NCBI GenBank assembly: GCA_964550475.1
Contig: CAZJZR010000001.1
Coordinates: 7,847-43,998, forward strand
DNA: 36,152 bases
Reading direction: 5' to 3'
From: an uncultured bacterium
GTDB lineage: Bacteria; Cyanobacteriota; Cyanobacteriia; CAIUCS01
This document shows, one piece after another, positions 1,236 to 36,152 of the stretch. The translations under genes and the position numbers were made by a program. A model generated the notes under the pieces. The model made no database searches. It saw only the letters and a list, made by a program, of their open reading frames with translations, and had not been told where the DNA came from. The first letter of the stretch is position 1. Every line of letters starts with the position of its first letter.

Positions 1236-1386
1236 AATATGCTCTGGCGAATCGCATAAGCCCTTTGGGCAGGCTTTGCCTACGCGGCTATACGAACGAA
1301 GTCCCCCTACGGGAACCAGCCTTGACTGATGGTTGTTAGTGCGCGGAGGCGCACTTTGTCCGTGTAGACGCGGTTTCAACCGCCAG
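1236..1386. repeat. Dispersed MITE-like repeat modules
   Basis: 1236-1290 is the reverse complement of the module cgcgtaggcaaagcctgcccaa.gggc.tattc.attcgcc, also seen at 3947, 8615 and 32328. 1363-1385 (gtagacgcggtttcaaccgcc) is related to ggcggttaaaaccgcgactac at 13028 and 36056. Confidence 0.55.
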
Positions 1387-1503
1387 GTATCTCTTGTTCT
1401 CAGGCGATCGCGGCTACATACACCCGTAGTCCCCCCCAACGCCATCACCAAATTTGAACCAATCTCGACGGTCAACCCAGGGGTGCCTATACTGAATGCG
1501 TCA

Positions 1504-1645
1504 GCCTAAGTCGCTGATTCAGGATCTTAGGTGGAAAAAGTTCTACCTAATTACCCGTTTAAGCGATTTTAGGCAGAAGTAATTCAGCCTAATCAAGCTA
1601 TGGGGCGATTAGGTAGATTAGATTCTCTCTAATTACTAGTTAGGC
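1504..1645. repeat. Array of alternating CCTAA / TTAGG cores; three phased TTAGG-N14-CCTAA inverted-repeat sites ending in a GTTAGGC core
   Basis: GCCTAAG at 1504. TTAGG-N14-CCTAA at 1527-1550 and 1569-1592. TTAGG-N14-TCTAA at 1609-1632. GTTAGGC at 1639-1645. Site-to-site period is 40-42 bp. Confidence 0.55.
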
Positions 1646-1658
1646 ATCAGGTAAGCGT

Positions 1659-2021
1659 ATGAGCTACGACATAGGAATTTATCACCCAGAGGTTCGCGGT
1701 CGCGTTGAAGGGGGCGAGGATCTGGATGGGTTCGAACATCCACAACTCGATTCGGCTGCTGCCTCGCGGTTTGTTGAATCCCTCGCCGCCTATGGGTACA
1801 ACGCGGAGCCGTCGGCTCCGGATCACCGCGCGTTCGTAAAGAACGTGTCTGGAAACGAGGTTCTGGTACACGTCTTTCCGACCGAGATCGCATTTTCGGT
1901 TCCTTACGGAAAGAACTCAAAGGACGCGATCTTTGAGGCATTGCAGGATGCATCGGAGATCTTGGACTCCAAACACATGTGTATGTTCGATCCCCAAACA
2001 GGAGAGTGGGCTGATGCCTAA
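1659..2021 (+). CDS. Hypothetical protein (cassette ORF 1)
   Basis: 120-aa ORF with no motif I recognise. The ATG lies 13 nt after GTTAGGC. The TAA stop is embedded in GCCTAAC (2016-2022). Confidence 0.6.
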   Translation: MSYDIGIYHPEVRGRVEGGEDLDGFEHPQLDSAAASRFVESLAAYGYNAEPSAPDHRAFVKNVSGNEVLVHVFPTEIAFSVPYGKNSKDAIFEALQDASEILDSKHMCMFDPQTGEWADA

Positions 2022-2103
2022 CACCTCGCTGGAGCTGACGTGTGAAAGATAAAGTGCCAAGCTCAAACTCTGGCGCGCGCGCCGCTCATCTCAACCGTTG
2101 GGC
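2016..2103 (+). other. attC-like recombination site A
   Basis: R'' GCCTAAC, 5-nt spacer ACCTC, L'' GCTGGAGC ... L' GCTCATC, 6-nt spacer TCAACC, R' GTTGGGC. L''/L' pair with G at L'' position 4 bulged. T2036 is a second bulge before a GC-rich stem (2037-2044 with 2076-2083). Confidence 0.5.
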
Positions 2104-2193
2104 TGCTTCAGTTCTTGGTTGAGACAGCACTCGAATCGCTTCTGTTGAGTGCCGAAAGCGATCGCACAGATCCCGTTGCAGCATCAAAGTATA

Positions 2194-2223
2194 TTGACAA
2201 CGTAAATACGCCCTATTTACACT
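2194..2223 (+). promoter_or_regulatory. Candidate sigma70-type promoter for brnTA (possibly giving a leaderless mRNA)
   Basis: TTGACA at 2194-2199, an 18-nt spacer, then TACACT at 2218-2223. The ATG at 2230 is 7 nt downstream and has no Shine-Dalgarno sequence. Confidence 0.3.
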
Positions 2224-2229
2224 ACAAGT

Positions 2230-2526
2230 ATGGATGTGCATTTCGTTCTCAATGGCATCACGTTTGTCTGGAATGACGAGAAAGCCAGGATCAACCCGAT
2301 CAACCACGACGGTGTTACGTTCCAACAAGCCGCAGAAGTCTTCTTCGATCCATTGCTTGTGGTCGTTGATGCAAGTCGTAATGATGAAGCGCGGGATGCC
2401 GTTATTGGTTTAGATCGGCGTTGGAACTTGCTATACGTTGTCTTTGTTGATCGGGAAAACGACATCATTCGGATCATTTCGGCTCGTAAAGCGACACGTA
2501 AGGAGCGGGAATTTTATGAAGCCTGA
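2230..2526 (+). CDS. brnT: BrnT-family (DUF497) ribonuclease toxin
   Basis: 98 aa. The sequence F.WD..KA..N...HGV.F.EA..VF.D....V.D........R...IG.......L.VV...R......IISAR.A...E...Y is the typical BrnT signature. It overlaps the downstream antitoxin ORF. Confidence 0.85.
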   Translation: MDVHFVLNGITFVWNDEKARINPINHDGVTFQQAAEVFFDPLLVVVDASRNDEARDAVIGLDRRWNLLYVVFVDRENDIIRIISARKATRKEREFYEA

Positions 2527-2800
2527 AACGTTGAAAAAGCGGCTAGATCGAAACCGTCCCATGACGACGATCACCATTCGGATGCCTGAAGATGTGATTG
2601 AGGACTTGAAGCAAGTTGCCCCCCTACTGGGTTTTTCTGGGTATCAACCTTTAGTACGTGCTTATATCGGGCAAGGTCTACGAGCTGACTTAGAGCGTTT
2701 GGAAGGCGATACGGTATCTGCATTGATTGCAAGCCTCAAGCGTCATGGTGTCAGTGATGAGGTAATTCAAGAAGCACTAGGTGAAGTGACTGGGCGTTAA
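2516..2800 (+). CDS. brnA: BrnA-family antitoxin (RHH-like)
   Basis: I prefer the ATG at 2516 (MKPETLKKRLDRNRPMTTITIRMPEDVIEDLKQVA..), not the 2438 start in the ORF track. AGGAG at 2501-2505 serves as RBS. It overlaps brnT by 11 nt. Size and the ITIRMPEDVIEDLK strand-helix motif fit BrnA. Confidence 0.8.
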   Translation: MKPETLKKRLDRNRPMTTITIRMPEDVIEDLKQVAPLLGFSGYQPLVRAYIGQGLRADLERLEGDTVSALIASLKRHGVSDEVIQEALGEVTGR

Positions 2801-2987
2801 TTTGAGTCTGGCTTACAGCCAGCATCCCAATCGGGTCGAGGATGGTATTTCTCCCTCCCCTCCCACACCACCTGCCATGCGGGTCCGCAACAGGCGGTTC
2901 ATGAAGACGCGCAAACAACTCTAATGGTTTAGGTATAGCCTTGGACTTTCATCCAAAGACTACGAATAGATAGCAATCCCTGTTGCT

Positions 2988-3218
2988 CTAACCACGGCTC
3001 GACTGAGCATCGCCGAACGTCTCATTGGTCATTCCCGTCTGTGTCGCCAGCGTTTTGGACAACCGCCAATAGTCTTTGCGACTAATGCCCGTCAAAATCG
3101 CATGACGTTCAGATCTCCCTTCGTGGGTTTGCCCTTGCCTTAAGCTAGTAGTTGTCGTCACTTGGCTCCTATAACTTTCGAGCATTTGGACGCTGGTTCT
3201 CCTACAGGGGACTTTCAC
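2988..3218 (-). CDS. Possible small ribbon-helix-helix (CopG-like) protein, orphan or degraded
   Basis: The segment ILTGISRKDYWRLSKTLATQTGMTNETF resembles the RHH beta-strand/helix/G.S/helix pattern. There is no partner ORF, and the start and reality of the gene are uncertain. Confidence 0.25.
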   Translation of the reverse strand: MKVPCRRTSVQMLESYRSQVTTTTSLRQGQTHEGRSERHAILTGISRKDYWRLSKTLATQTGMTNETFGDAQSSRG

Positions 3219-3242
3219 CCCATTGATTCATGCCCATGCTGG

Positions 3243-3330
3243 GCGTACACAATTCGGGTGCAGTGGATTGATCGAAGCCGCTTGGGTTGGATGCAAAGAT
3301 GTCGGCAACCGCTGACCAGAACCGTTAGGC
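3243..3330 (+). other. attC-like recombination site B (degenerate R'')
   Basis: R''-like GCGTACAC, spacer AATTCG, L'' GGTGCAGT (3257-3264) ... L' GCTGACC (3311-3317), 6-nt spacer AGAACC, R' GTTAGGC (3324-3330). G3260 and A3267 are bulged. The 5' half is homologous to site C (G.TGCAG.G). Confidence 0.42.
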
Positions 3331-3341
3331 CACTTCGCACC

Positions 3342-3608
3342 ATGAGCGAGAATATCACCATCACACTGTCACGCGACGAGGGTCTTGTATTGTTCGAGTT
3401 CTTCGCACGTTTTGGCGAGGACGATAATGATTTCACTCTTCGCCACACTGCCGAGTATCTTGCGTTCATGCGGATGTCGGCGCAGCTCGACAAGATGTTT
3501 GTTGAGCCATTTGACCCGAAGTATAAGGATTTACTGCGAGCAGCACGCGACCGAGTTGCAGCAGGCTATGAAGGCAAAGCACCAGGAGTTCACGATGACG
3601 TGGCCTAA
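3342..3608 (+). CDS. Hypothetical protein (cassette ORF 3)
   Basis: I prefer the ATG at 3342 (MSENITITLSRDEG...), 11 nt after GTTAGGC, giving 88 aa. The TAA stop lies inside GCCTAAC (3603-3609). The 3162 start in the track would read through site B. Confidence 0.6.
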   Translation: MSENITITLSRDEGLVLFEFFARFGEDDNDFTLRHTAEYLAFMRMSAQLDKMFVEPFDPKYKDLLRAARDRVAAGYEGKAPGVHDDVA

Positions 3609-3695
3609 CCATGCGTTGCAGCGAACCCAGCGTGAGCGTTGCGGTTGCCATCGTTGCGTCCCGTGCGCCGGGTTGCTGAGCTTGGGGCGTTCGAC
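3603..3695 (+). other. attC-like recombination site C (degenerate R')
   Basis: R'' GCCTAAC, spacer CATGC, L'' GTTGCAGC ... L' GCTGAGC (3675-3681), 7-nt spacer, GTTCGAC. There is a stem of about 15 bp (3615-3632 with 3666-3681), with G3618 and G3623 bulged and one mismatch. Confidence 0.5.
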
Positions 3696-3799
3696 AGAAT
3701 CAAACTCAAGGAAAATGAAAAGCGTCAGATTTTGTGAGAAGGGAAGCGAACAGAGAGTTGCACTGGTGACGGGTTCAACATCAGGAATAATGCGGTGTC

Positions 3800-3848
3800 A
3801 AAAGCCTGATTGCGTCTGGACTTTATCCACAAACAATCAGGCTTTTTT
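3800..3848 (+). terminator. Hairpin element with T-tract (aaaaGCCTGATTG ... CAATCAGGCtttttt); right, inverted copy of the 1149 element
   Basis: A 13-bp stem followed by TTTTTT. The sequence matches the reverse complement of 1149-1195 over nearly its full length. Confidence 0.5.
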
Positions 3849-3946
3849 GCGGAGAACTAGACCTTTCTATGTATAAATGCAGGATATAGGGCGTATTTCA
3901 CGTTTGGGGGAGGGGCGGTTAAAACCGCATCTACAAGAACTAAACC

Positions 3947-4019
3947 CGCGTAGGCAAAGCCTGCCCAACGGGCATATTCTATTCGCCCGGATGTATCCCC
4001 CAACTGTTGGATACGCCCC
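3947..4019. repeat. Dispersed repeat module (cgcgtaggcaaagcctgcccaacgggcatattctattcgcccggatg..cccccaactgttggatacgccc)
   Basis: Near-identical copies lie at 8615-8685 and 32328-32399, with an inverted partial copy at 1236-1290. Confidence 0.75.
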
Positions 4020-4035
4020 AGGATATAAATGCAAG

Positions 4036-5118
4036 CTAGTCCGCCAGGAACTGCACCAATTTCTCTAAGGTTGTCCAAGCAGCACCACTGTTGAGGATAT
4101 CGTGGGCGATCGCCAGCCCAGCCGCATGATCGCCCAAAGGCACCACTTCGCCCACCTGCAATGCCAGCGAAGCATTCAACGCCACGGCATCCCGTTGGGC
4201 GGTGGTGCCTTTCCCCTGCAATACGGCTTGCAAAATGGCGGCATTTTCTTGCACATCTCCACCCACCAACGCACTAATTGGGGTGGGAGACAGCCCCAGA
4301 GCAGCGGGAGCTAAGGTTGCCGCTGACACCTGCCCTTGGCTAAGGATGGCCAAGTCGGTGACATCGCCTAAGCCGGCCTCGTCCAGCTTTTCCCGACCAT
4401 GGAGCGCGATCGCCCGTTGGATGCCCAACTGTCCCAACGCCTGCGCCATAATTTCCACCAACTTGGGATCCGACACGCCCAACACCTGCCCGGTGGGTCG
4501 TAATGGGTTCACCAACGGCCCCAACAAGTTAAAAATTGTCCGAATCCCCAAGGTTTTTCGCAGTGGTGCAACTGCTTTCATCGCTGGATGCCAACCGGGG
4601 GCGAACAGAAATGTAATCCCGACTTCCGTCAGTGCGGCCTGAATTTTCTCCGGTGCAGCGGCCAAATTAACGCCCAAAGCTTCCAGTACATCCGCAGACC
4701 CCACCTTGCCAGAGGCCGAACGGTTGCCGTGTTTGGACACCACCACCCCCGCCGCCGCCGCCACAAACGCCACTGCGGTTGAAATATTAAAGGTCGAAGC
4801 CCCATCGCCACCCGTGCCGCAGGTGTCAATCCGAGGGGTGGGCAAGTCCGTTATGGCCGTTCCCTCTACCCCACGGGACTGCCCTTGGAGCACCTGTGCC
4901 ATTCCCGTCAATTCTTCGACCGACACTCCTTTGGCCTGGATGGCAGTTAAAATTCCCCCCGACAACACCGGAGGAATCGCCTCTGCCAACCACCCCTGCA
5001 TTAACCCCTGGGCTTGCTCTACAGATAAGGATTGCCCGTCTAAGAGTTGTTGCAAGAGGGCAGACCATTGCAGGGTTGCGATAGATTCAGAGGCTTGCGG
5101 GGCAGGGGACATAACCAT
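4036..5118 (-). CDS. trpD: Anthranilate phosphoribosyltransferase
   Basis: 360 aa. It contains the TrpD hallmarks [17 protein letters not shown] and [22 protein letters not shown]. Confidence 0.95.
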
Positions 5119-8403: not shown

Positions 8404-8685
8404 GAGGGTGTTTTAAAAGCCCTATTTGATGTAGCCCTGGCGACTAAAGTCGCGGCTATACGGACACTAGCGAAGCCATGCCCGTAGGGCTATAACCTGC
8501 CTACGCAGGTTATGGAAATCCTTGATTTTCTATAGTCCGCGTAGGCGGACTATAGCCCTACGGGCAATAGCCTTCGGCATGGCTACGCTAGGGCTTCGCT
8601 AGTGTTTGTATAGCCGCGTAGGCAAAGCCAGCCCAAAGGGCTTATTCTATTCGCCCGGATGCCCCCCCAACTGTTGGATACGCCC
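8404..8685. repeat. Nest of MITE-like repeat modules
   Basis: It starts with gagggtgttttaaaagccctatttgatgtagccctggcgac, which is the reverse complement of the 13005-13136 element and the same end as at 36036. It has internal palindromes (tagtccgcgtaggcggacta). It ends with the 8615-8685 copy of the 3947 module. Confidence 0.7.
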
Positions 8686-9906: not shown

Positions 9907-10890
9907 TTAGCTGGCTAAACCAGACTTGCGCGCTGGGGAATAGAAGCGTTTCGATTCCTTGATAAACCGGATGTAGAGGTGCTTAAAGGTGGAACGAATC
10001 ACCCGTGGCAGACCGAAGTCAATCGGCACTAGATTGGCGGGGAATTGCCAATCTGCCAACTCCAGTTCCTCTGGTCGGAGGTGGGGGAAGTGCAGTTGGT
10101 CGGGACTGGGACACAAGCCCAATCGCACCGAAGCGGCGATAGTGGGAATCGTCATTGGGTTGGCTTGCAGAATGGTTGCGATCGCCCAATCCAAGGCAAA
10201 CACATCCGTAGACGCTCCCAACACACCCAAATCGCGCGGTTCTCCACCACTGGGGCCATTGCCCTCATGCCCCACAATGCCATCCACAATCGTCAGGTCG
10301 GGGGCGATCGCCCGTGCCGTTTCCACCAACATGGTGCCAAAGCGGGCACTGTCCTTACCTGCTTCCATGTGCCACCATGCCTTCATCTTGCCGGGAACAC
10401 AGCCAAACAAATTCTTCACCCCCATGGTTAGGGTTAACTGCACATGGGACTTCACCTTGGGCAAATTAATCACCACATCTGCATCCATGGCTTCCTTGCT
10501 CAAGCGCAGATGATTAAACTCCTGACTCACGGTTTGATACCGCTTGCCCTTAAATTCCACAATTGGCACGCCCAATTCTGCCATCAATGGCAGATAGCCA
10601 CTGGCTTCGGCCACACCCAAGGCACTACCAAACGCTGGACTGTCACCCAGGAACGGTTTGCCCCCTGCCTCAATTACCAACTCCGCCACTGCCGCCGCCA
10701 ACCGAGGGTCAGTGACACAGGCTTTGCCGGGACGAGCACCCGTCAACAAATTCGGCTTCAGTAGCACACGATCGCCCGGTTTAACAATCGCCGCCATCCC
10801 ACCCATGGGGGCAAGTAAGGCTTCTAGGTTGGCACGCAGAACGGAGCGATCGTAGGTCTCAACTCGAAGCAAGCTAACCGTAGACTTCAT
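9907..10890 (-). CDS. DUF362 domain-containing protein
   Basis: 327 aa. The N-terminal V.IKPN....... pattern (VLLKPNLLTGARP) and overall layout resemble the DUF362 family. The assignment is from memory of that family. Confidence 0.75.
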   Translation of the reverse strand: MKSTVSLLRVETYDRSVLRANLEALLAPMGGMAAIVKPGDRVLLKPNLLTGARPGKACVTDPRLAAAVAELVIEAGGKPFLGDSPAFGSALGVAEASGYLPLMAELGVPIVEFKGKRYQTVSQEFNHLRLSKEAMDADVVINLPKVKSHVQLTLTMGVKNLFGCVPGKMKAWWHMEAGKDSARFGTMLVETARAIAPDLTIVDGIVGHEGNGPSGGEPRDLGVLGASTDVFALDWAIATILQANPMTIPTIAASVRLGLCPSPDQLHFPHLRPEELELADWQFPANLVPIDFGLPRVIRSTFKHLYIRFIKESKRFYSPARKSGLAS

Positions 10891-13004: not shown

Positions 13005-13136
13005 GAGGGTGTTTGAAAAGTATCTGGCGGTTAAAACCGCGACTACGCTAGTGTCCGTATAGCCGCGATTACCCTGCGGAAACGCAAGGCGAACAGTCGC
13101 CAGGGCTACATCAAATAGGGCTTTTAAAACACCCTC
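13005..13136. repeat. MITE-like element with terminal inverted repeats gagggtgtttgaaaag ... cttttaaaacaccctc
   Basis: The TIRs are read directly. Its internal modules are shared with 8404-8470 (inverted) and 36036-36152. Confidence 0.75.
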
Positions 13137-13354: not shown

Positions 13355-13861
13355 CTATTGATCTAAGATTTTTTGAATTGCCTTCGCTACATCTTGCTGC
13401 TCTTGAAACCACTTGTTATTGAAAGTGTTCAGCAATCCTAGGGAGGAATACACCGGATATTTATCCCCTGTACTGAAGTGGAGAAAAATTGGATGAATCG
13501 GTGTTCCTTCGGTATCAGCGGGTTTGATTTCTACCTTAGTAATCTCTGTTAGAGAGCGTGTAATGGTGGTTTTAGACAACAAGTATTGTTGTTCAATTGT
13601 GACCGTTTTAGTTGTGCGGTCTAAACTACAGGTGATCACGGCAACCGATGTATAAAACACCCAGCCCACAACCAAAAGCAGAGGAATCATCAACCAGCGA
13701 ATTTGAACTGGTAGTGGAGTTAGTTCATCCCCCCAGGATATCTGCGATCCCCAGATGAGAATGTACAGGGGGATGGCCAAAAAAATGCTGAGAAATAGCC
13801 CAATACTGAGAGGCTGGCTGTAGATCACTAATCGATCAGCAGTTTGTTCACGAATTTCCAT
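13355..13861 (-). CDS. Hypothetical membrane protein
   Basis: 168 aa, with two long hydrophobic segments in the N-terminal half. No recognisable domain. Confidence 0.55.
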   Translation of the reverse strand: MEIREQTADRLVIYSQPLSIGLFLSIFLAIPLYILIWGSQISWGDELTPLPVQIRWLMIPLLLVVGWVFYTSVAVITCSLDRTTKTVTIEQQYLLSKTTITRSLTEITKVEIKPADTEGTPIHPIFLHFSTGDKYPVYSSLGLLNTFNNKWFQEQQDVAKAIQKILDQ

Positions 13862-22231: not shown

Positions 22232-24325
22232 ATGAAGCAACTTCTTTATATAGAACTGCCGACTCCCGATATCCAAGCGGTGAATGCCTGGTTGCAAACG
22301 CAATTTCAGCCAGTGGTGGGGGTAACCCGCGCAACTCCGGATGGGATTCAGGTGCAGGTGCCTTTGAGCCAAGGGCAGGACGATGGGGCGGAACTGGCGG
22401 TGTTTACGTGGACGGTGCAGCGGACGACCTATCTGAAGGTATTTCGTTGGGGCGATCGCCCCGTTCCCTCCGAGGCGGCGATTCTCCAACAACTCACCCA
22501 GCAATTGCGGCAACAATTTCCGTACCACTACCCCGAACCACCGGATATAGACCTATCCCGCGAGTCAATTTTCACCGCCTTAGCTCCCTACTACCCGTTG
22601 ACCGCCCAGTATTTCCAGTCGATCCCCAACGGTGAGTACGACTTAGCCCGCGCCTATTGGTGGGAGCGGCGATGGCGGGACAGTGTGCGGAATCCGCAAC
22701 AACCCAAGCAAGTGATCTTTGTCCAAGATGGGCAACCCAGCGAACCACCCCAACCAGTTGCCTATGACCTAATCTATGTGGGTGGGGCGTTGGGCGTGAT
22801 CCATGCGGCGGTGATGGCGCGGCGGGGCTATCGGGTGCTGTTACTGGAGCGGATGCCGTTTGGCCGGATGAATCGGGAATGGAACATTTCCCGCAGCGAA
22901 ATCCAAAGCCTGATTGATTTGCAACTGCTGACCCCAGCAGAGGTGGACAGCATTATTGGCAGTGAATATAAGGATGGCTTCCACAAGTTTTTTGATGCCA
23001 ACAATCCCGACTATGCCAAGGCCGCAATTCTGCACACGCCGACGGTACTCAATCTCAGCATCGACTCCGATCGCCTGCTACAAATCTGTGGTGAAAAGCT
23101 GAAGGCAGCGGGCGGCGAAATTTGGGATCAGACCGAGTTTATCCGGGCGGATGTGGGGGGCGATCGCGTCACCATCCAAGCGACCCATCTGCCCAGCCAA
23201 ACCCACAAAACCGTCAGCGGTCGGTTGCTGGTGGATGCCATGGGCACCGCGTCGCCGATCGCATGGCAACTCAACGGTATCCATACCTTTGATAGCGTTT
23301 GTCCCACCGTGGGCGCGTGCATCAGTAGCGGCTTTCCGGAAGGGGTATGGGATACCCAATACGGCGATGTGCTGAACAGCCACGGTGACATTTCTAGAGG
23401 GCGGCAGTTGATTTGGGAACTGTTCCCCGGTCGGGATGGCGAATTGACGGTGTACCTGTTCCACTATCACCAAGTCCACCCCGACAACCCCGGTTCCTTG
23501 CTGGAAATGTACGAGGACTTTTTCACCATCCTGCCGGAGTATCGCCGCTGCAATATGGATGATCTGGTCTGGCGCAAGGCAACGTTTGGCTACATTCCCG
23601 GCCATTTTAGTGTGCAAGAGGGCGATCGCCGCGTGGCCTGCGATCGGGTGATGGCGATCGGGGATGCCGCCTCGCTGCAATCACCGCTGATTTTCACCGG
23701 ATTCGGCTCCCTCGTCCGTAACCTGGGACGGCTGACCGAACTGCTCGACACCGCCCTGAAACACGACCTACTGCAAGCCTCCCATCTCGACACCATCCGC
23801 GCCTACCAAACCAACGTATCGGTCACCTGGCTATTCTCCAAGGGGATGATGGTGCCGACGGGAATGCACCTGCCGCCCGAACGGGTCAACGCCATGCTGA
23901 ATACCTTTTTTGGCATTTTGGCTAGCGAACCGCCAGCCGTCGGTGAAGCGTTTATGAAAGACCGGATCGACTGGCTCAGCTTTAACCGCATGGCACTGAA
24001 AGCGGCATGGCAAAATCCCGCCCTGTTACTGTGGATCTGGCAAATGGCCGGAGCGGCAGATATGCTGCGTTGGCTGGGGAACTACGTCAATTTTTCGCTG
24101 ATGGCAATGGTCAGTTTCCTGCTAGGTAGCTGGTTCCCCGCCTTTGTCCGTTGGCTGCAACCGTGGCTGGAACCGCGTTACCCCGCCTTCTGGCTGTGGT
24201 TGCTCAGCCGCACCTACGGACTCACCAATGGCTTAGGCAAGCCAACCCAGGACTGGGCGGGCTTTGTCGCCCCCAAGGTGGTAACCTCTGCACCCAACAT
24301 CGAAACGGCAATGAGTAACCGTTAA
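22232..24325 (+). CDS. FAD-dependent oxidoreductase, CruA-type lycopene cyclase-like
   Basis: 697 aa. It has a Rossmann dinucleotide motif (DLIYVGGALGVIHAAVMARRGYRVLLLE), a second flavoprotein motif (AIGDAAS) and a hydrophobic C-terminus. The CruA/CruP resemblance is from memory and not verified. Confidence 0.8.
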   Translation: MKQLLYIELPTPDIQAVNAWLQTQFQPVVGVTRATPDGIQVQVPLSQGQDDGAELAVFTWTVQRTTYLKVFRWGDRPVPSEAAILQQLTQQLRQQFPYHYPEPPDIDLSRESIFTALAPYYPLTAQYFQSIPNGEYDLARAYWWERRWRDSVRNPQQPKQVIFVQDGQPSEPPQPVAYDLIYVGGALGVIHAAVMARRGYRVLLLERMPFGRMNREWNISRSEIQSLIDLQLLTPAEVDSIIGSEYKDGFHKFFDANNPDYAKAAILHTPTVLNLSIDSDRLLQICGEKLKAAGGEIWDQTEFIRADVGGDRVTIQATHLPSQTHKTVSGRLLVDAMGTASPIAWQLNGIHTFDSVCPTVGACISSGFPEGVWDTQYGDVLNSHGDISRGRQLIWELFPGRDGELTVYLFHYHQVHPDNPGSLLEMYEDFFTILPEYRRCNMDDLVWRKATFGYIPGHFSVQEGDRRVACDRVMAIGDAASLQSPLIFTGFGSLVRNLGRLTELLDTALKHDLLQASHLDTIRAYQTNVSVTWLFSKGMMVPTGMHLPPERVNAMLNTFFGILASEPPAVGEAFMKDRIDWLSFNRMALKAAWQNPALLLWIWQMAGAADMLRWLGNYVNFSLMAMVSFLLGSWFPAFVRWLQPWLEPRYPAFWLWLLSRTYGLTNGLGKPTQDWAGFVAPKVVTSAPNIETAMSNR

Positions 24326-32327: not shown

Positions 32328-32399
32328 CGCGTAGGCAAAGCCTGCCCAACGGGCATATTCTATTCGCCCGGATGTATCCCCCAATTGTTGGATACGCCC
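32328..32399. repeat. Copy of the 3947 repeat module, preceded by a solo gtaactgttcac end (32294-32305)
   Basis: Direct sequence identity with 3947-4019 and 8615-8685. Confidence 0.75.
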
Positions 32400-36035: not shown

Positions 36036-36152
36036 GAGGGTGTTTTAAAAGTGTCTGGCGGTTAAAACCGCGACTACGTGAACAAAGTCCGCCTACACGG
36101 ACTGAAGAAAATCAAGGGTTTCCATAACCTGCGTAGGCAGGTTTTGTCCGTA
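36036..36152. repeat. MITE-like repeat modules (gagggtgttttaaaag.., ggcggttaaaaccgcgactacg, aacctgcgtaggcaggtt) running off the window
   Basis: It shares modules with 8404-8530 and 13005-13136. Confidence 0.7.

Follow-up and report, generated by a model that had tools for sequence, protein, structure and literature searches.

An integrase-less cassette array with an attI-like leader and an intron-split attC site between a nitrate-transporter gene and trpD in a cyanobacterial contig

INTRODUCTION

Between the gene of a nitrate-type ABC transporter ATP-binding protein (nrtC/D family; positions 257 to 1111; NCBIfam TIGR01184, 409 bits; Pfam ABC_tran) and trpD (4036 to 5118, reverse strand; NCBIfam TIGR01245, 383 bits), an uncultured cyanobacterium carries a row of small genes separated by attC-like sites. 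Is this an integron, and if so, how much of it is left? An earlier note on this DNA had read the row as an integrase-less cassette array, either a CALIN or a detached piece of a chromosomal integron. Here, we refer to the whole stretch analyzed (36,152 nucleotides) as the window; features lie on its forward strand unless stated otherwise, and the two flanking genes, both outside the element, are given only as context.

That reading was supported, as the units are cassette-like and the window holds no integrase. In our assessment (probability of roughly 0.85), the interval from 1487 to 3799 represents the remains of a chromosomal integron of cyanobacterial lineage that has lost its integrase gene (intI), retains the attI docking site along with three whole gene cassettes and the beginning of a fourth, and is most likely static. 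In IntegronFinder terms, the element is a CALIN, defined by two or more attC sites that cluster within 4 kb and lack an intI over that distance; here, three sites fall between 2016 and 3695. It belongs to a known kind, and its novelty is modest, but this locus allows it to be documented unusually well.

RESULTS

Three attC sites of different types

The boxes that the earlier note had assigned to the three sites could all be read from the sequence at the positions assigned. Site A (2016 to 2103, 88 nt), of the 'GCTGGAGCG.ACGCGTG.GG.ATAAAGTGCCAAG' type and structurally eroded, consists of GCCTAAC (2016 to 2022), GCTGGAGC, GCTCATC, and GTTGGGC (2097 to 2103), the first and last being its R''/R' pair. 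Site B, if taken as contiguous in the window, reads GCGTACAC (3243 to 3250), GGTGCAGT, GCTGACC, and GTTAGGC (3324 to 3330). Its left box had been described as degenerate; what stands there is intron sequence and not a decayed R'' box. The left part of the true R'' (TCCCA, 2825 to 2829) is severed by the intron from the remainder of the site (3249 to 3330), which retains the AC of R'', the spacer AATTC, L'' with its extrahelical G, a variable center, L', a spacer, and R' (GTTAGGC). Minus the intron, the R''/R' pair is TCCCAAC/GTTAGGC, with a T instead of a purine as the first base, the same as in uninterrupted homologues. Site C (3603 to 3695, 93 nt) is formed by GCCTAAC (3603 to 3609), GTTGCAGC, GCTGAGC, and GTTCGAC (3689 to 3695). 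Its right box is indeed degenerate, as had been proposed: GTTCGAC keeps the AAC/GTT match but pairs poorly with GCCTAAC, at only two of the four outer positions.

The geometry around the boxes is that of cassettes. The TAA stops at 2019 to 2021 and 3606 to 3608 lie inside GCCTAAC, and the ATG codons at 1659 and 3342 follow the GTTAGGC cores (1639 to 1645 and 3324 to 3330) by 13 and 11 nt, all as claimed beforehand; stop codons are found within or just before R'', and the cassette limits are at G|TT. Four of the six GCCTAAC/GTTAGGC 7-mers in the 36 kb of the window fall within 2 kb (1639 to 3609), with their strands alternating.

As a stand-in for the IntegronFinder attC model, we built a covariance model (R2) from 13 attC sites of contigs bearing the BrnT/BrnA (BrnTA) cassette described below, excluding the window. 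In its training alignment (87 columns, 83% of the cells paired), 9 of the 13 L-helix pairs showed compensatory changes, and the covariation score of 0.399 exceeded those of shuffles (0.133) and of slid alignments (0.125 at most). A search with an attC model had been suggested as a check. With R2, sites B (62.7 bits; E value, 6e-16) and A (31.1 bits; E value, 1e-6; full length) were recovered with the expected ends, while site C was returned with its exact ends but without significance (12.5 bits; E value, 0.27). The alignments place the R-to-L spacers at 5 and 5 to 7 nt, and in all three sites they bulge after the fourth base of L'' and again 8 nt further on, a geometry that the covariation within the family also supports. 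Within the window, the sites ranked B, A, C; a match at chance level fell between A and C, and the rest of the window gave none that was significant. Run on 1.36 Mb of cyanobacterial DNA, the model returned two matches, both at one locus, and it scored unrelated bona fide attC sites at 15 to 28 bits. Another model (R1, of the aadA/Xanthomonas type) missed all three sites, and also bona fide long attC sites, and was too narrow.

Each site has relatives in other arrays. Site A was 80% identical over 84 nt to an attC at locus L094. The remainder of site B shared 84% identity over 80 nt with an attC from a contig of a cyanobacterial MAG (L133) and could be aligned to the attC of the BrnTA cassettes at L106 and L108. 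Site C matched the attC of L087 and L088 at 86% identity over 84 nt; that of L087 belongs to a cassette adjoining an integron integrase.

Folding gave a more mixed picture. Whole-site folding energies of A, B, and C were no better than those of shuffled sequence (z-scores all at or above 0; relatives and class 1 attC sites, −1 to −4). When the bottom strands were folded, another check that had been suggested, restored site B formed a canonical but weak structure (−9.4 kcal/mol), and site C (−13.9 kcal/mol) formed the L-box stem and not the R box, which does form in L088 (−19.4 kcal/mol). The hairpin expected of site A did not appear: at −10.6 kcal/mol, there was no R/L stem in either the minimum-energy or the centroid fold, whereas its relatives have a canonical R/L hairpin at −11 to −18 kcal/mol, two of them being markedly more stable. 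Sites A and C therefore fold worse than their relatives, and the array looks fossilized.

Could the sites then be chance palindromes, or a host repeat family without any link to integrons? The positive z-scores would fit, as would the absence of an Rfam match and the behavior of a generic AAC...GTT hairpin score, which did not separate the sites from background and found equally good candidates elsewhere in the window. However, every site is homologous to attC sites of arrays adjoining integrases, the attC family shows compensatory covariation, R2 is highly specific, and an intron that homes to attC sites sits at the canonical position in one of them. We give this possibility almost no credence, and it is effectively refuted by the attC homology, the covariation, and the matches and specificity of R2. 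The three sites are genuine attC sites.

Gene cassettes

All three units behave as cassettes, in that the R' crossover marks where the resemblance of each to independent loci sets in and breaks off; the homology limits (1639 to 2099, 2094/2097 to 2830, and 3324 to 3686) are the crossover points. Two of the three recur as the first cassette adjoining an intI (L087 and L105).

Cassette 1 is bounded by two successive G|TT crossovers (1640 to 2097), and its similarity to L092 and L094 is confined to 1639/1643 to 2060/2099. It carries ORF1 (1659 to 2021), a protein of 120 amino acids with no assigned function, for which AlphaFold2 (AF2) modeled an alpha/beta fold (pLDDT, 94) with no convincing PDB match. 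Among its 42 homologues, those of Xanthomonas sp. CFBP 8703 and of a Pseudomonadota MAG are located in arrays with canonical 60-nt attC sites and have their stop codon within GCCTAAC, and the cassette as such occurs in Xanthomonas and metagenome arrays.

Cassette 2 (2098 to 3324) contains a BrnT/BrnA operon with its own promoter, followed by the intron-split attC B. The toxin-antitoxin pair recognized in the earlier note was confirmed as type II: brnT (2230 to 2526) encodes a ribonuclease toxin of 98 amino acids (Pfam PF04365; E value, 7e-23) and is followed, with an overlap of 11 nt, by a brnA-like antitoxin gene (2516 to 2800; 94 amino acids; weak RHH/CopG matches only), the two being kept together in 75 of 80 loci. 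All the organism-named sequences among the closest homologues of brnT (82 to 97% identity) are cyanobacterial. Over 2094/2097 to 2830, the cassette has 87 to 92% nucleotide identity to BrnTA cassettes in at least 10 contigs (L098, L099, L100, L105, L106, and others), most plausibly cyanobacterial; this identity starts at GTTGGGC and stops at the R'' box. At L105, it is the first cassette and adjoins a split intI. A consensus scan detected a promoter-like TTGACA-18-TACACT just 5' of brnT (2194 to 2223), in agreement with the earlier suggestion that the pair may have its own promoter, and in more distant BrnTA loci the nucleotide similarity starts at 2192, that is, with the −35 hexamer.

Cassette 3 (3325 to 3689) was delimited by its homology to L087 and L088, which reaches 93.9% nucleotide identity over 3324 to 3686 and is lost on either side. 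Its product, ORF4 (3342 to 3608, 88 amino acids), is a widespread and mostly helical cassette protein with no assigned function (AF2 model of low confidence) that has 88 homologues, with identities of up to 97%. At L087, it is the first cassette and adjoins an integron integrase (TIGR02249, 391 bits), and it was also found in CALIN-like contexts (L085, L086, and L095). From the geometry of the sequence, a fourth, truncated cassette may start at 3690 and extend to 3799, with an ATG at 3716, 20 nt past the core. Its peptide (MKSVRFCEKGSEQRVALVTGSTSGI...) had no family match, and it may resemble an SDR N terminus. The array as a whole is flanked by dispersed repeats (X) and by a pair of similar hairpins.

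The statement that few cassette arrays are described in cyanobacteria proved overstated. Integrons of Cyanobacteria appear in surveys (PMC2426708, PMC4889954), and we found further arrays with the attC type of this locus in two Kovacikia minuta plasmids and in many contigs bearing a cyanobacterial-type BrnT gene.

An attI-like leader without integrase

Upstream of cassette 1, an AT-rich leader (1487 to 1645; 42% GC) ends in the crossover core GTTAGGC (1639 to 1645). It contains two imperfect direct repeats of ca. 55 nt (about 1500 to 1556 and 1583 to 1640), rich in GCCTAA/TTAGG motifs (internal repeat score of 16 versus 6.5 ± 1.3). In local alignments, it matched the region between intI and the first cassette of the complete integron on plasmid pB of Kovacikia minuta CCNUW1 (NZ_CP083584.1) with a score of 38, versus 9.6 ± 1.4 for shuffles (0 of 1,000), the L100 leader with a score of 22 (versus 9.4 ± 1.4; 0 of 500), and the L105 attI with a score of 15 (versus 9.6 ± 1.3; 2 of 500). 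Judged by this homology, an attI region is present upstream of the first cassette, which would make the element an integron that lost its intI rather than a bare cluster of attC sites.

The absence of an integron integrase from the window, already noted before, was upheld by Pfam searches of all large ORFs and by tblastn with two IntI queries, which also found no intI remnant beside the leader or elsewhere in the 36 kb. A complete integron has an intI with the integron-specific extra domain adjoining attI, and within these 36 kb there is none. At the left edge of the leader, a consensus scan found the promoter-like TCGACG-17-TATACT (1465 to 1493; 9 of 12 positions matching), the sole candidate for Pc. 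Only its −10 hexamer lies in the part of the leader that is homologous to others, with the −35 outside, and it is a possible substitute for Pc.

A group IIC intron remnant in attC B

The sequence that interrupts attC B is what an internal deletion has left of an attC-targeting group IIC intron (2830 to 3248, reverse strand, read from 3248 to 2830; 419 nt). It keeps ca. 120 nt of the 5' end, a frameshifted maturase C terminus, which matches that of LtrA (E value, 2e-5), and domains V and VI. By blastn, it is homologous to ltrA introns of class 1 integrons on Klebsiella plasmids (ca. 70% identity) and to a copy on Kovacikia plasmid pA (84% over 118 nt), where the 5' end of the related intron abuts an attC. 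Rfam returned no group II intron match in this region; the 3' end folds into DV/DVI-like hairpins like those of the Klebsiella intron (z-score, −3.2).

The junctions, ...CGAATTGT|GTACGCCC...CGACCCGAT|TGGGA, match in kind those of an intron at L090 (...CGAATTGT|GTACGCCC...CTACCCGAT|TAGAC) and those of introns in the aadA1 and aadA2 attC sites of class 1 integrons. Removal of the intron restores TCCCAAC, the R'' box of the uninterrupted homologues (L099, L100, L105, and L106), which read AGCATCCCAAC-AACC.... It was found inserted in the bottom strand, at the R'' end and antisense to the cassettes; IIC-attC introns occupy the bottom strand, opposed to cassette transcription (PMC3001079), and the placement agrees with this published behavior. 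Of domains I to VI and the reverse transcriptase (RT)/maturase of a complete member, 419 nt are left, with no RT ORF. On its sequence, it is a remnant and not a functional member, and since the RT ORF is deleted and the maturase remnant frameshifted, it would be unable to splice or move by itself. This intron, the attI region, and the structural erosion of the attC sites are features that the earlier note did not contain.

DISCUSSION

Origin and present state of the array

We propose that the cassettes were captured successively, through IntI recombination of the folded bottom strand of attC with attI. Such capture would explain the G|TTRRRY limits of each unit and the recurrence of these units in other arrays, in other orders, or beside an intI. 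Later, by homing, a group IIC intron would have entered attC B on its bottom strand, between the GT and the T of the GTTGGGA core and in the orientation opposite to the cassettes, and would then have lost most of its interior. Judging from its structure, the array is most likely static at present: it lacks an integrase in cis, 419 nt of intron sequence divide attC B, attC A no longer forms its hairpin, and the R boxes of attC C are mismatched. The BrnTA pair would use its own promoter, and its nature as an addiction module probably guards the segment against deletion. For ORF1 and ORF4 to be expressed, transcription would have to read through from the leader or from farther upstream.

The same origin could also have left a reservoir that still works, if at least some of the cassettes could be excised and reinserted in trans by an integron integrase from another part of the genome or from a plasmid entering the cell. 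CALINs often co-occur with genomic integrases, and IntI tolerates divergent attC sites (PMC4889954); a matching integrase and attI exist on a cyanobacterial plasmid (Kovacikia pB), the R' cores have stayed intact (GTTAGGC, GTTGGGC, and GTTAGGC), and folding is retained in restored site B and in the L stem of site C. We consider this improbable, though the least so of the alternatives, against the physical split of attC B, the missing R/L hairpin of attC A in both folds, the unpaired R' of site C, and the lack of an integrase within 36 kb. Less probable still is that the array is one half of an integron split by rearrangement, with intI farther along the same replicon, outside the window. Rearrangement is among the origins that Cury et al. 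give for CALINs (PMC4889954), the flanking repeats and hairpins could mediate such events, and the attI homology ends about 107 nt short of where intI would start by comparison with Kovacikia pB. However, the breakpoint holds no intI fragment, and a housekeeping nitrate-transporter gene lies only about 375 nt to the left of the attI remnant. IntI-mediated insertion at secondary sites is another documented source of CALINs (PMC4889954), by which the cassettes would have entered one at a time, in trans, at a non-attI site, and the leader would be native DNA with an incidental likeness to attI. This is very hard to reconcile with a leader that aligns over ca. 104 nt to the attI region of Kovacikia pB, about 20 standard deviations above shuffles, aligns to the L100 and L105 leaders as well, and stops precisely at the crossover core, just as all three do.

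Comparison with known systems

Loss of intI from a chromosomal integron, the reading that we prefer, makes the element comparable to the CALINs of Cury et al. (2016; PMC4889954). It shares with them its small size (three to four cassettes), heterogeneous attC sites, a cargo of proteins without assigned function plus a toxin-antitoxin pair, and the lack of a recognizable intI pseudogene, which is also lacking in 95% of CALINs (PMC4889954). Unlike them, it has one attC interrupted by an intron remnant and keeps an attI homologue joined to the first cassette; the latter points to intI loss specifically, over the other origins proposed for CALINs. The Kovacikia pB integron has a homologous attI region, an 87-nt attC type that is the type of site B, and the same layout, in which one strand carries the leader, the crossover core, and the cassettes. 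It differs in having an intact intI (TIGR02249, 468 bits) and at least five attC sites and in sharing no cassettes with the window, which lacks both intI and the intI-proximal ca. 107 nt of the leader.

As for the intron, the known group IIC-attC introns (e.g., S.ma.I2 and the ltrA intron in the aadA1/aadA2 attC sites of Klebsiella plasmids) are likewise on the bottom strand, opposed to the cassettes, and separate a gene from its attC (PMC3001079). They have the same 5' (...GAATTGT|GTACGCCC) and 3' (...CCCGAT|T...) junctions, and homology extends over the 5' region and domain V. In contrast, the window copy has 419 nt instead of about 1.97 kb, with the RT ORF deleted; it is nearest to that of a cyanobacterial plasmid (84%, versus about 70% for proteobacterial introns), and a consensus scan detected no outward promoter in it.

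Compared with the sedentary chromosomal integrons with toxin-antitoxin cassettes of Vibrio and Xanthomonas, the array is very short, has no integrase, and has heterogeneous attC sites (three types) rather than homogeneous ones. It resembles them in its chromosomal location, in a cargo made up mostly of small proteins without assigned function, and in having an internal toxin-antitoxin cassette that is equipped with its own promoter, and a homologue of ORF1 is itself a cassette of a Xanthomonas array.

Layout of the array and its flanks

The array consists of a leader (1487-1645) followed by cassette 1 (ORF1, site A), cassette 2 (BrnT/BrnA, site B), and cassette 3 (ORF4, site C). Reading the sequence confirmed all the boxes and coordinates that the earlier note had claimed for three attC-like sites, that is, GCCTAAC-N5-GCTGGAGC ... 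GCTCATC-N6-GTTGGGC for site A (2016-2103), GCGTACAC-N6-GGTGCAGT ... GCTGACC-N6-GTTAGGC for site B (3243-3330), and GCCTAAC-N5-GTTGCAGC ... GCTGAGC-N7-GTTCGAC for site C (3603-3695). As also claimed, the stop codons of ORF1 (1659-2021) and ORF4 (3342-3608) lie inside GCCTAAC, and these ORFs start 13 and 11 nt, respectively, after a GTTAGGC core. The 36-kb window has six GCCTAAC/GTTAGGC 7-mers, of which four, with strands alternating, fall in the 2-kb array stretch. The BrnT/BrnA pair reported for cassette 2 was recovered as well: BrnT gave a clear Pfam match, the overlapping ORF 3' of brnT is RHH-like, and a promoter-like TTGACA-18-TACACT upstream of brnT is consistent with the separate promoter that had been suggested.

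The array is flanked by a nitrate-type ABC ATPase gene and trpD. The HIP1 count (48 observed versus 0.4 expected) and the presence of cyanobacterial DUF families indicate that the window DNA is cyanobacterial. Among 185,579 species genomes, the best trpD relatives were at most 76% identical, none had the nitrate ABC gene beside trpD, and the cassettes were absent from all of them. HIP1 depletion was considered as a sign of foreign origin and discarded (1 observed versus 2.7 to 3.6 expected, not significant). The sole HIP1 (GCGATCGC) between 1412 and 4105 lies at 2158-2165, within the 5' untranslated stretch of the BrnTA cassette. L105, one of the metagenome, MAG, or plasmid contigs used here as comparison loci (L numbers), has this HIP1 too, which fits a cyanobacterial origin of the cassette. 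At the right end, an ATG at 3716, after the site C core, opens a short ORF that extends into a hairpin (3800-3852) and a dispersed repeat of the host. On geometry alone, it may be what remains of a fourth cassette; its reading as an SDR fragment found no family support and was dropped.

Recognition of the attC sites by comparison

In single-stranded DNA folds, none of the three sites was more stable than its own shuffles. A home-made AAC...GTT hairpin score was rejected as uninformative because bona fide attCs rank no better than background either (true attCs 10.75 to 19.25, window background up to 15.75). Rfam, at gathering and permissive thresholds, returned nothing for the region, its library having no attC family, nor did the intron remnant described below match a group II intron there. 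Since these approaches fail to establish the sites, the case rests on comparison with other sequences.

Two covariance models were made from attCs of other loci. R1, built from 14 aadA/Xanthomonas-type attCs, missed sites A, B, and C in the window. It was set aside as uninformative, since true long attCs were also missed (the L085 and L086 sites) or barely scored (dfrA12, at 10 bits), probably because matches longer than ca. 75 nt are out of its reach. R2 was made from A6, an alignment of 13 attCs from BrnT loci (87 columns, aligned without difficulty), with the window sequences left out. The A6 structure, with R''/R', L''/L', two inner pairs, and bulges at columns 17 and 25, has 83% of cells paired, and both sides of the L helix change in 9 of 13 pairs. 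Its covariation score was 0.399, versus 0.133 in shuffles (0/500) and at most 0.125 with partners slid.

With R2 as a proxy for an attC model, the proposal of attC sites held for site B (62.7 bits, E=6e-16) and site A (31.1 bits, E=1e-6), while site C scored 12.5 bits (E=0.27). The right-hand ends of the matches coincide with those of the earlier note for all three sites and the left ends do so for A and C; since the true R'' of B has been split off, the match to this site begins within the intron, at 3245. No further significant match was found across the 36-kb window. Unrelated true attCs (class 1 orfF, dfrA12, Xanthomonas, L083, and L085) scored 15 to 28 bits, and therefore site A was detected by a model unrelated to it by descent. 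For site C, the low score is comparable to that of a canonical site, for example the one in L085. As for specificity, R2 gave only two matches in cyanobacterial trpD neighbourhoods totalling 1.36 Mb, both in the trpD locus of an Elainellales MAG (L039, 455-536 and 2159-2238, same strand, 1.7 kb apart), where they probably represent another small CALIN (cluster of attC sites lacking integron-integrase). Across the BrnT loci it found 42 sites; all of them share the strand of the cassettes, and the largest arrays have six. A segment of ca. 35 nt located 5' of R'' (TTAGTTTGAGT...GTTGCAGCCAGCATCCCAAC) is kept behind different cassette genes (L133, 6613-6650; window, 2796-2829; and the equivalents in L099 to L108), and the cyanobacterial attC family may therefore reach upstream beyond the canonical R''.

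Relatives of the three cassettes

Of the 42 homologues found for ORF1, those in Xanthomonas sp. CFBP 8703 and a Pseudomonadota MAG belong to arrays in which small ORFs, all on one strand, each have a canonical 60-nt attC behind them (GCCTAAC-N5-ATTCAAGC...GCTTAAT-N6-GTTAGGC), with the stop codon within GCCTAAC as in the window. The closer homologues, from metagenome contigs (L092/L093 and L094), have behind them an 88-nt attC aligning base for base with site A; this type reads GCCTAAC-AAxTC-GCTGGAGCG.ACGCGTG.GG.ATAAAGTGCCAAG...GCGCTCAGC-N6-GTTA.., and the sequence 5' of the gene is GTTAGGCATCAGG.AAGCGTATG, again as in the window. The nucleotide similarity of cassette 1 starts at 1639/1643 and ends at 2060/2099, with none beyond. 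Along similar lines, cassette 3 is 93.9% identical in DNA to L087/L088 from 3324 to 3686 (GTTAGGC core to attC 3' arm), and the identity is lost on both sides. ORF4 has 88 homologues with identities of up to 97%; the one in L087 occupies the first cassette position, at a distance of 120 nt from a divergent integron integrase gene, intI (TIGR02249, 391 bits; cut-off, 265), and other copies are found in short integrase-less arrays (L085, L086, and L095). The model predicted for ORF1 is confident and alpha/beta, with best structural neighbours at a TM of 0.45 to 0.52, none convincing, while ORF4 is predicted as a three-helix protein at low confidence. PDB sequence searches with the cassette cargo gave nothing useful.

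For BrnT, the nearest relatives (82 to 97% identity) were cyanobacterial whenever an organism name was available, and the metagenome scan returned 80 loci. The BrnTA cassette DNA is 87 to 92% identical in at least 10 loci, from 2094/2097 to 2828-2830 (GTTGGGC core to R'' box). The core is preceded in these loci by unrelated attC 3' arms, or by a leader in L100 and L105, and on the 3' side there is an uninterrupted attC beginning AGCATCCCAAC-AACC. In L105, the cassette adjoins a divergent intI split by an insertion of ca. 1 kb (QLAH01001021.1, 2222-4305, with the N-terminal part at 3625-4305 and the C-terminal part at 2222-2590). A plasmid search with cassette 2 DNA gave no match. L133 (JAESGQ010000066.1, 6639-13327), from a HIP1-rich cyanobacterial MAG, has at least six attC matches on one strand, one of them 84% identical to site B of the window, and no integrase in the 20 kb covered.

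A group IIC intron remnant in site B

The earlier note had described the left box of site B as degenerate. This reading does not stand, as that box is intron sequence: removal of 2830-3248 gives AGCA-TCCCAAC-AATTC-GGGTGCAG..., and thereby the very R'' that the uninterrupted homologues have. The intron lies in the 440-nt interval between brnA and site B; its minus strand, from 3248 to 2830, reads GTACGCCCAGCATGGGCATGAATCAATGGGGTGAAAGTCCCC ... GAACCGCCTGTTGCGGACCCGCATGGCAGGTGGTGTG ... CGACCCGAT, and in blastn it matched group II introns (ltrA) in class 1 integrons of Klebsiella plasmids. These introns are located between an aadA2 or dfrA1 cassette and qacEdelta1, in the orientation opposite to the cassettes, and the window remnant is likewise opposite. 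Their junctions (...GGCTTGAACGAATTGT|GTACGCCCGAC ... CTACCCGAT|TAGAC) are the same in kind as those in the window (...CTGCACCCGAATTGT|GTACGCCCAGC ... CGACCCGAT|TGGGA). Group IIC-attC introns are a described lineage that inserts in the attC bottom strand, opposite to cassette transcription, parting the gene from its attC (PMC3001079), and the window remnant shows the same behaviour. The 419-nt remnant keeps its 5' end for ca. 120 nt, a frameshifted piece of the maturase C terminus (E=2e-5 versus LtrA residues 399 to 448), and DV/DVI-like hairpins of the same shape as those of the Klebsiella intron. It has no reverse transcriptase and is therefore a dead remnant.

The nearest relative of the remnant (84%) is on Kovacikia minuta plasmid pA (L091). 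There, an IIC intron 5' end (9925-10119, 84% to window 3131-3248), with no maturase ORF, begins precisely where the R'' end of an opposite-strand attC match lies (...GAATAGT|GTACGCCC), which makes it the second case of a truncated, attC-associated intron from a cyanobacterium.

Since the same BrnTA genes are followed by different attC bodies in L097 and L105, we considered that the attC now behind cassette 2 could have been swapped in by recombination between intron copies. This explanation was rejected on the evidence of L106/L108, which carry an uninterrupted, site-B-related attC behind the same BrnTA cassette.

The folds of the window sites can be set against those of their relatives. Site A folds at -10.6 kcal/mol with no R/L hairpin, versus -11 to -18.2 and a hairpin with two bulges in L092 and L094, and site C at -13.9 kcal/mol with only the L stem formed, versus -19.4 with both L stem and R box in L088. 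Site B, physically split in the genome, gives a canonical but weak fold (-9.4 kcal/mol) once the intron is removed. The stem substitutions that separate the sites from their relatives are uncompensated, as expected for attC sites out of use.

An attI without its integrase

The leader is AT-rich (42% GC), with GCCTAA/TTAGG motifs in two direct repeats of ca. 55 nt. It aligned with the L100 leader (score of 22 versus 9.4 ± 1.4 shuffled, 0/500), with the L105 leader between intI and the first cassette (15 versus 9.6 ± 1.3, 2/500), and, over about 104 nt, with the region from intI to the first cassette in Kovacikia minuta plasmid pB (38 versus 9.6 ± 1.4, 0/1000). In all four, the leader ends in ...TAAT(N3-6)|GTT(A/G)G. 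These alignments identify the leader as the docking site, attI. Plasmid pB holds a complete integron, with an intI (468 bits on TIGR02249; product, WP_224346711.1) about 60% identical in its product to that of L105 and five R2 attC matches on the opposite strand. This locus (L178, strain CCNUW1, NZ_CP083584.1, 23042-41635) has an intact intI, and a DNA cytosine methyltransferase and an AAA ATPase are among the products of its cassettes. Compared with pB, the window leader lacks the intI-proximal ca. 107 nt and the integrase. The claim that the window has no integron integrase was borne out: Pfam found no tyrosine recombinase in the 36 kb, and tblastn with two IntI queries, even at E=10, found nothing beside the leader.

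History and significance of the array

Having attC sites and no intI in the window, the array is a CALIN, as had been proposed. CALINs are common, with 279 of them counted among 2,484 complete genomes (PMC4889954), and Cyanobacteria have figured in listings of integrons since 2007-2008 (PMC2426708). This array differs from ordinary CALINs in that the attI is retained, and therefore the route by which it arose is identified. Its anatomy, the homologies, and the lack of intI in the window are direct observations, from which we infer the following history. An IntI resembling those of Kovacikia and L105 would have brought the cassettes in at attI; the intron would have homed into attC B, on its folded bottom strand, and decayed afterwards; and intI and the proximal leader would have been deleted, leaving an array that now appears fixed in place. 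Toxin-antitoxin cassettes in chromosomal integrons have an established role as addiction modules that stabilise the segment. BrnTA, from its own conserved predicted promoter, could act in this way, disfavouring loss of the segment.

The locus does not change the understanding of integrons, CALINs and IIC-attC introns both being known kinds. It is a clean, well-delimited case of integron death in a chromosome, in which the docking site and cassettes remain, the integrase is gone, and the recombination sites erode, one of them broken by a retroelement specific to such sites. Somewhat beyond the ordinary are an apparent lineage of attC-homing IIC introns in cyanobacterial integrons (two instances) and the indications of a coherent cyanobacterial integron family (related intI, common attI, 87-nt attC, and cross-genus BrnTA cassette). 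We put at slightly under one half the probability that there is an integron lineage proper to cyanobacteria, characterised by intI genes related to one another, an attI in common, a homogeneous, covarying attC family of 87 nt, a BrnTA cassette circulating among many genera, and their own branch of attC-homing IIC introns. In the literature searched, such a lineage was counted in surveys only, and no description was found. If it exists, its arrays take up cassettes with relatives in the integrons of other phyla (for instance, the ORF1 family in Xanthomonas arrays and the ORF4 cassette, 94% identical beside an unrelated intI) and can be fixed in the chromosome through intI loss and intron damage. 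This little-studied cassette pool, with a recognisable attC family, a matching attI and integrase on a plasmid of the cultured Kovacikia minuta, and a cross-genus toxin-antitoxin cassette, could be used for tracing gene flow among cyanobacteria and to and from other phyla.

Other features of the window

Two ORFs had no Pfam match, 22232-24325 (+, 697 amino acids), which also had no NCBIfam match, and 13355-13861 (-, 168 amino acids). A match to Rfam CRISPR-DR28 at 1337-1360 (-) was taken as chance, being below threshold (23 bits, E=0.61) and without an array; it sits between the conserved parts (1246-1293 and about 1347-1386) of the left-hand copy of a dispersed repeat. Two similar hairpins of 53 nt each, mutually 83% complementary, enclose the array, one past the ABC gene (1143-1195) and the other before the repeat beside trpD (3800-3852), with no further copy in the window. 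They may be terminators or a recombination scar. The dispersed intergenic repeat (core, GGCAGGCTTTGCCTACGCGG) is found at 1246-1293, 3946-4018, 8608-8685, and 32328-32399, and in part at 13024-13046 and 36055-36094. The cassette array has a copy to its left and another, inverted relative to the first, to its right, and the repeat may have mediated the deletion or rearrangement that took out intI.
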